Part shown: in pieces, positions 8,052-24,360 of the stretch | Layout: every line of letters starts with the position of its first letter | Numbering within the stretch: the first letter of the stretch is position 1 | Assembly: GCA_964016885.1 (NCBI GenBank) | Contig: CAXHJY010001239.1 | Coordinates: 1-39,305, forward strand | DNA: 39,305 bases | Source: Eledone cirrhosa | Lineage: Eukaryota | Direction of reading: 5' to 3' | The notes under the pieces: generated by a model | What the model was told of the DNA's origin: nothing | Database searches by the model: none | What the model saw: the letters and a program-made list of their open reading frames with translations, nothing else | Program-made: the position numbers and the translations under genes

Positions 8052-9138
8052 TATATATATATATATATATATATATATATATATATATTCATATATATAT
8101 ATATATATATATTCATATATATATATATATTCATATATATATATATATTCATTTATATATATATATATATATATATATATTCATATATATATATATATAT
8201 ATTCATATATATATATATATATTCATATATATATATATATTCATATATATATATATATATATACATATACAGATATATATATTTATACATATATATATAT
8301 GTATATATATATATTCATATATATATATTCATATATATATATATATATATATATATATATATATATATATATTTATACATATATATATATGTATATATAT
8401 ATATTCATATATATATATTCATATATATATATATATATATATATATATATATATATATATATATATATATATATTCATATATATATATTCATATATATAT
8501 ATTCATATATATATATTCATATATATATATTCATATATATATATATATATATATATATATATATATATATATATATTCATATATATATATTCACATATAT
8601 ATATATATATATATATATATATATATATATATATATATATATATATATATATATTCATATATATATATTCATATATATATATTCATATATATATATATAT
8701 ATATATATATATATATATATATATATATATATATATATATATTCATATATATATATTCATATATATATATTCATATATATATATATATATATATATATAT
8801 ATATATATATTCATATATATATATATATATATATATATATATATATATATATATATATATTCATATATATATATTCATGTATATATATATATATATATTC
8901 ATATATATATATTCATATATATATATTCATATATATATATTTATATATATATATATATATATATATATATATATATATATATATATATATATATATATAT
9001 ATATATATATATATATATATATATATATATATATATATATATATATTCATATATATATATTCATATATATATATATATATATATATATATATATTCATAT
9101 ATATATATTCATATATATATATATATATATATATATAT
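8052..9138. repeat. (TA)n tract with recurrent TTCA interruptions
   Basis: Direct reading. Confidence 0.95.
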
Positions 9139-9139
9139 A

Positions 9140-9251
9140 GGAACCAGTAAGACCCCGACAGCTGAGCTCAAGCCGTTTCGACGGCTAATTCTGGACTAAA
9201 TGAAAATTTATCCTGGTATTTAAATAGCCGATCTTCTCAAGGGGTAATTCC
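9140..9251 (-). ncRNA. Type I HHR, U3-A8 core variant (family D)
   Basis: Reverse complement of 10023-10134. Confidence 0.75.
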
Positions 9252-10022
9252 ATATATGGTCAAAGTGATTGTCAAAAATCAGTAGTAATTCTGTGCTTGC
9301 AAATTAGTAGGGGAGATGGTGGCTAAACCTGCCAGTAGGAGAAAGAGGGGAGGGGGTGGAGTAGACCCAATCAAGCGTTGGTAGTGCCAGCTACAGCTGG
9401 GCATGAGGTCAAAGAAGATACAGGGGAGGGGGAGGGGGAGGAAGTCGGAACGGTAGGTAGAACAATGGGGGGTAGAAATAGGAAAGAAAAAAAAAAAAAA
9501 AAAAAAAATACTGAGAGTGAAGAAAGGCAAATAAGTGTAAAGAAAAGTAAAGTAAATTAAATTCTACGACCTAGGTGTCAGGCTATTGTTAGGCGAGAAT
9601 AAAATAAAGAAAGAAAGAAAGAATTAAAAAAAAAAAAAAAAAAAAAAAATTCTTTCTTTCTTTCTTTATTTTATTCTCGCCTAACAATAGCCTGACACCC
9701 AGGTCGTAGAATTTAATTTACTTTACTTTTCTTTACACTTATTTGCCTTTCTTCACTCTCAGTATTTTTTTTTTTTTTTTTTTTTTTCTTTCCTATTTCT
9801 ACCCCCCATTGTTCTACCTACCGTTCCGACTTCCTCCCCCTCCCCCTCCCCTGTATCTTCTTTGACCTCATGCCCAGCTGTAGCTGGCACTACCAACGCT
9901 TGATTGGGTCTACTCCACCCCCTCCCCTCTTTCTCCTACTGGCAGGTTTAGCCACCATCTCCCCTACTAATTTGCAAGCACAGAATTACTACTGATTTTT
10001 GACAATCACTTTGACCATATAT

Positions 10023-10134
10023 GGAATTACCCCTTGAGAAGATCGGCTATTTAAATACCAGGATAAATTTTCATTTAGTCCAGAATTAGCCGTCGAAACG
10101 GCTTGAGCTCAGCTGTCGGGGTCTTACTGGTTCC
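10023..10134 (+). ncRNA. Type I HHR, U3-A8 core variant (family D)
   Basis: Stem I ACCCC/GGGGT plus distal GGAA/TTCC; core TTGAGAA 10034-10040; stem II GA(t)CGGCTA/TAGCCGTC; GAAA; stem III ACGGCT/AGCTGT; GUC, predicted cut after 10117. Confidence 0.78.
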
Positions 10135-10142
10135 TATTACCC

Positions 10143-10166
10143 ACTCTACTACCTCAAGTATTGAGT
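10143..10166 (+). ncRNA. Bulged hairpin 1 of family D
   Basis: ACTC-TACT-acctca-AGTA-TT-GAGT. Confidence 0.7.
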
Positions 10167-10216
10167 ACTTTGGTGCGTTATGGTCCACCTGGTTCCTTAC
10201 CACATTTCCTTCGTTA

Positions 10217-11623
10217 TATATATATATATATATATATATTCATATATATATATATATATATATATATATATATATATATATATATATATATATATATATA
10301 TTCATATATATATATATATATATATATATATATATTTATTCATATATATATATTCATATATATATATTCATATATATATATATATATATATATATATATA
10401 TATATATATATATATATATATATATATATATATATATTCATATATATATATTCATATATATATATATATATATATATATATATATATATATATATTCATA
10501 TATATATATTCATATATATATATATATATATATATATATAAATATATATATATATATATATATATATATATATATATATTCATATATATATATATATATA
10601 TATATATATATATATTCATATATATATATATATATATTCATATATATATATATATATATATATATATATATATATATTCATATATATATATATATATATA
10701 TATATATATATATATATATATATATATATATATTCATATATATATATTCATATATATATATATATATATATATATATATATATGAATATATATATATATA
10801 TATATATATATATATATATATATTCATATATATATATATATATATATATATATATATATATTCATATATATATATATATATATATATATATATATATATA
10901 TATATATATATTCATATATATATATATATATATATATATATATATATATACATATATATATTCATATATATATATATATATATATATATATATATATATA
11001 TATGAATATATATATATATATATATATATATATATATATATATATATATATTCATATATATATATATATATATATATATATATATATATATTCATATATA
11101 TATATTCATATATATATATTCATATATATATATATATATATATATATATATATATATATTCATATATATATATTCATATATATATATATATATATATATA
11201 AATATATATATATATATATATATTCATATATATATATTCATATATATATATATATATATATATATATAAATATATATATATATATATATATAAATATATA
11301 TATATATATATATATATATATATATATATATATTCATATATATATATATATATATATATATATAAATATATATATATATATATATATAAATATATATATA
11401 TATATATATATATATATATATATATATATTCATATATATATATATATATATATATATATATATATATTCATATATATATATATATATATTCATATATATA
11501 TATATATATATTCATATATATATATATATTCTTATATATATATATATATATACATATACAGATATATATATATATATATATATTCATATATATATATTTA
11601 TATATATATATATATATATATAT
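10217..11623. repeat. (TA)n tract with TTCA interruptions
   Basis: Direct reading. Confidence 0.95.
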
Positions 11624-11663
11624 ATAATATAAGATCAAAAGATGGTTAAAGGAGTTCAATATA

Positions 11664-21620: not shown

Positions 21621-21626
21621 TTTTGA

Positions 21627-22743
21627 CTCAAAAGGGCCACCCCTTATCAAGATAATAGATATGAATGTAGATTATGTTCCCAGGAACCTTTTGAAATAAT
21701 AAATCTAAGAATATCCTATTAAATAAACGACAGGAATTAATCATATCATGTAAGCATAAATTGAGGAGAACTTTTAAATATTATAAACCTAATTAATATA
21801 CACTTTAGAAATAATTATAACATTTTTTTAAAAAAAATTAGTTAACCTATAATTAATATTCTACTACTAATGAACTGCATAATCTTAAGTCCCTTTTACA
21901 GCTATCTTTTCCTAAAATGTATACAAATAAGTATACATATAAACTATTTTAATTTCAGATTATGATTCTATATTCCTTATAATCTATATAAATTTGTTAT
22001 TTCTCATTAATAAATTTACCCCCCCCCCTCCCAATGATAATAATTATTTTTTTATTTTCCCTTCGCTTTTAACAGCACTCTTCAATTACATGTAACTCTT
22101 ATTTATCATATCTATATGAATTAATATAAATTTATGAATATAAATATACCTGTCAATTTAATTAATTTATTTTCTTTTTATAGATGTAAATTCCCTATAT
22201 TTTAAACTTGATTGATATTTTTAACTAACACATTTATCGTAAAACGTTATTCTCCTTAGACATTTACATTAGCATTATTCTTTTATAACATCAATTTTTC
22301 ATGTACTAATTTTTCATGTACTAATTTTTCATGTACTAATTTTTCATCCCTAAAATAATCTTTTCATTCATCATACTCTTTCCATTCAAAACTGAATTCT
22401 GCTTTCCTCTACCCCTAAATTAAAGTTCTATTACTACTATTCTACCATCTTGAGCACTTACTACCTTTCTATTGGTCAATTCAAAACCTGTTCCCAAACA
22501 GACTTATTATATTAAATTTTTTTTTTTTTTTTTCAATAAACAAATATCACTATTTCTGAAGACATCATATATATGTATGTATGTATGCAAATTCCCTCTG
22601 ATAGTTTGTAAAAAATGTTACATAGATCTATATGATATACATACCAACACAAACATATATATCCTAGAAACGATCGTAAAATGATGAATTTATTAATATA
22701 AGGAGCTGCTTCTTGGTTTTTATTCTTTATTTTTATTAATTTA
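21627..22743 (+). mobile_element. 5'-truncated relative of element A (subfamily A2): EN C-terminus 21627-21796, different 3'UTR, diverged pLTR
   Basis: Encodes LKRATPYQDNRYECRLCSQE..LLNKRQELIISCKHK..FKYYKPN* with a frameshift. pLTR homology from about 22470. Confidence 0.85.
22547..22687 (+). ncRNA. Type I HHR with long stem II (subfamily A2)
   Basis: TCACTATTT-CTGAAGA-about 104 nt-GAAACGATCGTA-AAATGATGA; GUA triplet. Confidence 0.65.
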
Positions 22744-22836
22744 TATATATATATATATATATATATATATATATATATATTTAGATTTTGAGTTTATGTT
22801 GGTTGTATACCAACACCTCAGTATGCAGGCTGGAGC

Positions 22837-22876
22837 ACTCGACGAAGTGCGCAGGTTGGTTTGGTAACTCCGGAGT
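22837..22876 (-). ncRNA. Bulged hairpin 1 of family E
   Basis: Minus strand ACTC-CGGAGT-loop-ACTTCG-TC-GAGT. Confidence 0.65.
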
Positions 22877-22930
22877 AGTGTAAAATAAAGTTAAATAAAG
22901 TCAAATGATTAAAATTTAGCTTCGTTTATT

Positions 22931-22985
22931 ACTGCTATATATATTTCAGTGACAGACATATTTGGCTGTGACCTCTTCAGGCAGT
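22931..22985 (-). ncRNA. Type I HHR (family E, intact core)
   Basis: ACTGC-CTGAAGA-stem II-GAA-ATATATAT-A-GCAGT, then AATAAA. Confidence 0.8.
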
Positions 22986-23185
22986 TTGAATTAATATGGT
23001 ATAGACAAGTACATATGTTGTTTAGGTGTATGATATTGTCAATACTCTGATATGCCCAGTTCCTTGTTGGGTTGTTAATTCACTGGGGTACCGGAGTTCC
23101 CCAGTGAATTAACAACCCAACAAGGAACTGGACAATATCATACACCTAAACAACATATGTACTTCTCTATACCATACTAATTCAA

Positions 23186-23240
23186 ACTGCCTGAAGAGGT
23201 CACAGCCAAAGATGGCTGTCACTGAAATATATAGAGCAGT
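23186..23240 (+). ncRNA. Type I HHR (family E, U16.1>G, probably inactive)
   Basis: ACTGC-CTGAAGA-GGTcACAGCCA/TGGCTGTcACT-GAAATATATAGA-GCAGT, then AATAAA. Confidence 0.7.
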
Positions 23241-24360
23241 AATAAACGAAGCTAAATTTTAATCATTTGACTTTTATTTAACTTTATTTTATATATATAT
23301 TTATATATATATATATATATATATATATATATATATATATATATATATATATATATATATATATATGCACATATATTATATATATATATATATATATATA
23401 TATATATATATATATATATATATATATATATATATATATATATATTAGAATTCGTGCTCTGAAATAGCGATGTATACATGAATGTATATATAGTATATTT
23501 GGCAACATACTGGATGCTTAATTAAAAATATTTTGAAGACCTTGCGCTATTACTTTAATGTAGTGACTATGTCATTTACTTCTTTTTTCAACAAACATAT
23601 ACATATACAGACATATATATATATATATATATATATATATATATATATATATATATATATATATATATATATATATATATATATATATATATATTTACAT
23701 ATATATATTTATATATATATATATATATATATATATATTTATATATATATATATATATATATATATATTTATATATATATTTATATATATATATATATAT
23801 ATATATATATATATATATATATATATATGTATATATATATATATATATATAATTAGAAGTATATATATATATATATGATTATATATGTATATAATAAATA
23901 TATATTATATATATATTATATATATTATTTTCCGTATGAAACTTTACATATACTTCGTACGAGCATTTATGTAGTTTGCACTAGAATTTTTGTATCGTGG
24001 CAGCACCCTTAGAGATAGTATTAGTTTTCTTTTTCGGAATTCTGAATTATTATTTCGTATTAGTTTATTTATTTTTGTTTGCACTAGGTGTTTGCTGGCC
24101 TTGTGCCTTGGGTAGCATCCTTTATTTCGTACTGGTCTCGGGACTCTGAATGATTATTTCGTGGTAGTTTCTTTAGTATTTTGGCCCCCCACTTGTTGAC
24201 CCGTCACCGTAGGATATATTCGGTTGTTTACGTATACCTCTTAAAAGGGTCTCATTATAATTCCGTCCCACCTAGTAAACCTTTCTTTAGTCTAGCAGTA
24301 CCAGTGAGAGACATGATAGCTGTCCTTGGGATATAGTAACCAGAATTTTTTTTTTTTTTT

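Follow-up and report, generated by a model that had tools for sequence, protein, structure and literature searches.

Penelope-like elements (PLEs) are described as carrying a tail, an extension on one of two inverted pseudo-long terminal repeats (pLTRs; PMC3846280 and PMC8557442). The origin of the inverted arms and of the tail was called unresolved in PMC8557442 and was partly addressed by in vitro experiments with PAc, an element of the Poseidon clade (Frangieh et al. 2024, PMC11167929). In that system both target strands were nicked and extended, and the tail was mapped between two internal start sites of the reverse transcriptase (RT) on the RNA; ribozyme cleavage was not needed, and a dimer was predicted. 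Circular templates have also been proposed (available text of PMC4209133), and elements of the Hydra clade are described as inserting into (TA)n and carrying hammerheads (PMC8557442). We analyzed 39,305 nucleotides of Eledone cirrhosa DNA (positions 1 to 39,305 of contig CAXHJY010001239.1, GenBank assembly GCA_964016885.1; hereafter the window), which contains head-to-head inverted insertions of elements designated A, B, D and E. We read these as inverted PLE insertions into (TA)n, with the PLE tail as the difference between their long and short ends, and propose, with evenly balanced confidence, that both nicked strands prime on one RNA, at a distal and a proximal start site.

The arms were compared by self-BLAST with simple repeats masked and by pairwise alignments. 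Three complete head-to-head palindromes were found in the window (B, D and E), and a fourth fold-back, A, has a like layout but its inverted arm runs out of the window. Their parts are as follows.

11624-15033, minus strand: B inverted arm, 5′-truncated, short end at 11624 by alignment
15031-15353, plus strand: B 5′ pLTR, identical to 18926-19248
15432-17834, plus strand: B open reading frame (ORF), 800 aa, RT then C-terminal GIY-YIG-type nuclease, Hydra-clade motifs
18926-19248, plus strand: B 3′ pLTR, long end, hammerhead motif (core at 19060, predicted cut after 19114)
19161-19248, plus strand: B tail, 88 nt; an 8-bp hairpin lies 15 nt short of its end
9138-9625, minus strand: D inverted arm, ending short at 9138 and differing from the plus arm by 1 substitution and 1 homopolymer indel in ~490 nt
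9626-9647, no strand: D centre, 22 unpaired A, which may belong to either arm
9648-10214, plus strand: D plus arm, long end, non-coding 3′ fragment, hammerhead-like motif with variant core (predicted cut after 10117)
10138-10214, plus strand: D tail, 77 nt
22782-23091, minus strand: E long-ended arm, tail at 22782-22880 (99 nt), hammerhead core at 22980
23092-23095, no strand: E centre, 4-nt loop of a near-perfect hairpin
23096-23291, plus strand: E short-ended arm, which differs from the long-ended one in ~200 nt by 5 substitutions and two indels (16 nt and 1 nt)
10217-11623, no strand: (TA)n target array interrupted by TTCA, whose polarity is unchanged across D and B
1-1436, minus strand: A inverted arm, cut by the window edge, reverse complement of 2888-4324, 0-nt junction overlap
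1437-8050, plus strand: A plus arm, with a pLTR at 1437-1936, an ORF at 2089-4515 with one internal stop, and a pLTR at 7552-8050, long end

One arm extended past its mirror arm before (TA)n in all three complete fold-backs, by 88 nt in B, 77 nt in D and 99 nt in E, and (TA)n adjoined all six outer ends. Both features had been claimed in the original prediction, and alignment bore them out (one long and one short end in 3/3, TA junctions in six of six). Reverse-complemented, the B minus arm (11624-15033) aligns with 15748-19160 at 3407 matches, 3 substitutions and one 3-nt indel, and the plus arm (15031-19248) continues 88 nt beyond this extent. In D the minus-arm end at 9138 is the equivalent of 10137 on the plus arm; the long end was placed at ~10214, against 10216 in the original prediction, as its boundary with TA is ambiguous. 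Arm identity was 99.7-99.9% in B, D and A. One-sided asymmetry is already in print as the PLE tail, and what is seen here is this known signature in new Hydra-clade members; new are the tails of 77-99 nt, two to three times the length usually reported, and the coupling of arm lengths described below.

The assignment of A and B to the Hydra clade rests on their motifs. The B ORF has YRDD at residue 357 and a GIY-YIG-like motif at residue 680 of 800, and the similar ORF of A, with its one stop, has them in the same order. Both have DKT in place of DKG, an RW motif, a CxCx5C linker, CxxC and CxH, and by eye on the alignment their nucleases lack CCHH. This set matches the Hydra-clade definition in PMC8557442, and A and B are therefore assigned to that clade. 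There were 25 homologues at E <= 1e-20, with 31-42% identity, and the only named one, from the cephalopod Argonauta hians, has an uninformative name. Pfam recognised neither an RT nor a GIY-YIG domain (B was assigned to no family and A had a single sub-threshold match), a PDB sequence search gave 0 matches, and six short motifs sought in the available supplement of Craig et al. 2021 gave no family match and one unrelated hit. Naiad was rejected for A and B because the nuclease is C-terminal. For D and E the window contains no ORF, and neither gave a tblastn match; they are putative PLEs by their hammerhead-like motif (with a variant core in D), TA target and tail. Asn/Thr-rich inserts lie within the ORFs of A (3490-3800) and B (17150-17400) at positions that differ relative to homologues, and may be likened to the N-rich inserts described in Adineta Penelopes.

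Like the Hydra-clade elements of Craig et al. (2021; PMC8557442), A and B have a single ORF with an RT, a C-terminal GIY-YIG-type nuclease, DKT, CxCx5C, CxxC and CxH, a hammerhead near the 3′ end, a (TA)n target and an inverted 5′-truncated copy, as in Penelope-13_HM. They differ in size, with units of 3.9 and 6.1 kb against generally <3 kb, and in the third residue of the RW motif (RWT in B and RWR in A, against RWK). Direct pLTRs, an adjacent inverted copy and a one-ended extension are also features of Adineta Pen2a_Av (PMC3846280) and of Fig. 2 of PMC8557442. Published tails, however, are of 30-40 bp and called 'optional', whereas those measured here are of 77, 88 and 99 nt, with a further one predicted at 136 nt; the available text of PMC8557442 states no Hydra-specific tail length. 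Unlike in published tailed pLTRs, target-site duplications are unreadable here within (TA)n. Such long tails make the end classes easy to score, and a genome-wide count could make the 'optional tail' a rule or dismiss it.

The two end classes are not confined to the palindromes. By alignment to family members within the window 13 ends were classed, 6 long and 7 short, leaving aside the unclassable ends of other repeats near 21011, 27030, 28417 and 29450; the short class of family A rests on a single diverged copy, ending at 22742 and aligning to 7914, about where the original prediction put the end of A's inverted arm. The copies other than the four fold-backs above are listed below.

21178-22742, no single strand: composite of a D-like minus arm with a short end (21178), a fold-back at ~21575, ~55 nt of plus arm and an A-like plus-strand 3′ fragment
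24346-24763, plus strand: D-like solo copy, short end, 5′-truncated at a T-run
27525-27689, minus strand: B-like solo copy, ~165 nt, short end same as that of B, TA on both sides
38774-38830, plus strand: A-like solo fragment, tail sequence only, long end
38957-39305, minus strand: A-like pLTR copy with a long end, running off the window edge

End positions recurred in independent copies: that of B at 27525, that of D at 21178 and 24763, and that of A at 38830 and 38957. Short ends lacked a long-ended partner in 4/7 cases (27525, 24763, 22742 and 21178), and a long end without a partner was clear in one case, the 57-nt solo piece at 38774-38830. Since each class is found without a surviving partner, each can arise alone, and both behave as start sites unless these copies are deletion remnants. 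The short ends lie 20-64 nt and the long ends 97-200 nt 3′ of the predicted ribozyme cut. As all of them lie beyond the cut, the template would have been uncut or circular, with initiation internal or on the circle. Published tables put 24 consensus ends of Hydra elements beyond the ribozyme cut, by 30-70 nt for 12 of them, 88-153 nt for 11 and 355 nt for one. This fits two end classes across the clade, although different families are being compared.

Canonical hammerhead cores, with a stem I of 5-10 bp and a palindromic stem III, were found in A, B and E; for these the descriptor, relaxed after D had been seen, matched in 0-3 of 1000 shuffles. Rfam reported no hammerhead at A, B, D or E, and its miRNA matches were simple-repeat noise. 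Its only hammerhead match in the window, at 29257-29301, was sub-threshold and was also the only match of our first strict scan; this core and another at 20893 lie in unclassified repeats ending at (TA)n. The hammerhead-like fold of the D family (10030-10122, 21190-21285 and 24655-24750) has U3-A8 in its core in one copy and C3.A8 in two, and a stem III longer than in the other families. The original prediction had placed priming of the short end at a first hairpin, a claim that found no fold support at any of the four short sites (local fold z of +0.75, +0.63, -1.17 and +0.5). Before the long end, the fold z of the hairpin was -2.2 in B and -3.8 in E, and -1.44 and +0.03 in the others, being weak in A and not clear in D. 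Consensus folds had a two-sided change in 0/29 pairs for the A tail (2 copies) and 0/33 for the D end (3 copies), and z-scores for whole-tail folding were -1.63, -0.16, -2.2 and -1.23.

At all five ends whose natural continuation is known, the element overlaps TA by 2-3 nt (chance 0.19-0.29 per end, product ~5e-4 by hand), and both end classes look like primed junctions. This, the occurrence of each class without a partner, and the in vitro extension of both strands from two sites bounding the tail (PMC11167929) agree with that part of the original prediction in which two target strands are primed. A fixed assignment of strand to site does not follow, since the same study saw no start-site difference between strands. 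The elements resemble PAc in having two putative start sites 3′ of the hammerhead that bound the tail, an AT-rich target and probable use of both strands. They differ in clade, in the 2-3 nt TA overlaps (PAc works without primer-template homology or strand preference) and in that the putative start sites of A and B lie upstream of the ORF start. In twin or dual priming of L1 (available text of PMC2837659) the second target strand likewise primes an inverted cDNA, with a head-to-head join and little microhomology. However, L1 twin priming joins two different fragments with an internal deletion, whereas both arms here copy the same 3′ region from fixed family sites and overlap over the whole short arm with no internal deletion. 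The twin priming model of the original prediction, in its L1 form, was thus set aside.

The structure, the two fixed end classes, the junctions and the arm-length coupling were all observed in the window. In the mechanism that we propose, the element's protein would bind one template RNA reaching past the hammerhead cut site, and its nuclease would nick both strands of (TA)n. One strand would prime at the distal internal start site to give the long end and the other at the proximal site to give the short end, with 2-3 nt of base pairing assisting in each case. Both cDNAs would copy the same RNA towards its 5′ end, stopping together or with the short-site cDNA stopping first, and would be joined head to head through 0-3 nt of microhomology. 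Two start sites and the extension of both strands are borrowed by analogy from the in vitro work in another clade; we infer the single RNA, the use of one site per strand and the order of events. B, a near-intact element of an unstudied clade, is suited to an in vitro test.

Several points weigh against this proposal. The study of PAc concerns the Poseidon clade and found neither a start-site difference between strands nor homology between start site and target. The microhomology at the ends would equally come from repair joining, and deletions might have left the solo copies as remnants. In the Penelope-13_HM consensus, inverted copy included, the ribozyme lies 101-102 nt from both ends, although that consensus may have been trimmed. 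The tight hairpin centres, with loops of 4, 6 and 22 nt, are equally well explained by snap-back. In that model the 3′ end of the long-site cDNA would fold back and be copied, and at the short site this copy would become linked to the second target strand, whether through resolution by a nuclease or through annealing with a brief cDNA that had been primed at that site. We regard snap-back as a tentative alternative of appreciable probability.

The centres bear on this choice. The head-to-head junction of B has the 3-nt overlap TCT at 15031-15033 and the centre of D has the A-run (9626-9647), both as originally predicted. What had been taken for a 10-nt filler at the centre of E is more plausibly the tip of a hairpin, which adds two base pairs and one T.T mismatch and closes on a 4-nt loop. 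The centre of the D-like fold-back is a 3-bp micro-hairpin that is also present in a sister copy, beside the T-run at which that copy is truncated. The centres of E, D and the D-like fold-back are hairpins with loops of 4-22 nt, as snap-back would have it, and the long arm contains the short arm in A and B. Earlier interpretations also point this way, self-priming having been proposed for palindromic junctions (PMC3846280) and nuclease resolution for the tail (PMC8557442). Against this, back-copying would have to halt at one set position, which solo copies use too (27525, 24763 and 22742) and which corresponds to an RT start site in Poseidon. The A junction has no overlap, and a short-arm origin of the A-run in D would mean that the short arm had not been copied from the long one. 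The junction sequence cannot separate the two readings, as both give the same result. We prefer two-strand priming, since the short site also operates in solo copies and has been shown to start reverse transcription in Poseidon, with snap-back staying a close rival by virtue of the hairpin centres.

The 5′ stops of the two arms are coupled, lying <=25 nt apart in 3/5 fold-backs. Under a rough log-normal null fitted to 12 arm lengths, the chance is 0.019 per pair and P ~7e-5, or 2e-3 (2/4) without the fifth fold-back (21178-21625), which has lost most of one arm. It also counts against two-strand priming on one RNA that one of the 12 lengths, that of the inverted arm of A, was predicted and not seen. 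The coupled truncation points argue against two independent RNAs and favour one template. In A and B, the two of four fold-backs that allow a reading, the arm with the long end is also the one extending further 5′, which counts in favour of two-strand priming on one RNA. We thus consider improbable a dual priming on two separate RNAs with independently chosen start sites, in which the long/short pairing in 3/3 would have come about by chance. Two further points tell against two-strand priming on one RNA and suit separate RNAs. Given 6 long and 7 short ends, three discordant pairs out of three have P = 0.12, which is not significant, so that the window alone does not show non-random long/short pairing. 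In addition, the composite at 21178-22742 reads short/short as it stands: a D-like fold-back and an A-like fragment, which ends at 22742, the equivalent of A 7914, are joined head to head with no TA between. Separate RNAs might also explain why the arms of E differ by 5 substitutions and a 16-nt indel. However, the composite may be a deletion between neighbours, the arms of B, D and A are nearly identical, and each arm of E has its own change weakening the ribozyme fold, a pattern that post-insertion decay would be expected to produce.

A stricter form of priming on one RNA, possible but rather doubtful in our estimation, is an asymmetric dimer that would invariably prime from the first nick at the distal site and from the second nick at the proximal one. 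Inverted pairs would then be almost always long/short, the long-ended arm would always reach at least as far 5′, and the two sites would lie 80-140 nt apart in Hydra-clade elements. If true, it would unite the inverted arm and the tail, for which separate explanations have been given until now, in one mechanism testable by genome counts. An obligatory long/short rule is not supported, given the short/short composite, the same-class ends in the published consensus and the lack of strand preference in vitro. No title or abstract opening that we saw assigns two start sites to the ends of inverted copies, although older reviews of Penelope structure may hold such a model, and the available part of bioRxiv 10.64898/2026.07.22.740005 does not mention the tail or priming.

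Near-perfect inverted repeats of up to 3.4 kb within low-complexity DNA could also suggest amplification, read or assembly fold-back artefacts. This is very unlikely, since the tail is on one arm only, the arms differ by substitutions, the unpaired loops of B and A are of 714 nt and about 1450 nt, and the same structure has been published for PLEs (PMC8557442). Furthermore, the TTCA polarity of the arrays flanking D and B is kept, not mirrored: TTCA:TGAA counts were 35:0 to the left of D, 33:2 between D and B, and 8:0 in the first 322 nt to the right of B, with 18:9 when all of the right array is counted.

Beyond the long ends of A, D and B, all of which point right, lie long TA arrays (8051-9137, 10217-11623 and 19249-19570, respectively) in which TTCA recurs periodically and in a single polarity. 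The simple reading is a pre-existing array, with templated addition as an alternative. The 3′ untranslated region of B (17890-18955) has tandem duplications of 232, about 220 and 40 nt, found in both arms. The segment at 23930-24345, between (TA)n and a D-like copy, has an internal 38-nt repeat; it was not counted as an arm because it matches no ORF or element of the window. Two 3′ fragments of a further family (25334-25852 and 37332-37848), 98% identical and 5′-truncated at the same point, encode a related nuclease C-terminus with ~40% identity to that of A and are followed by TG/TA-rich DNA. Finally, an unusually long TA-rich array, 7.9 kb in the assembly, occupies 29450-37328.

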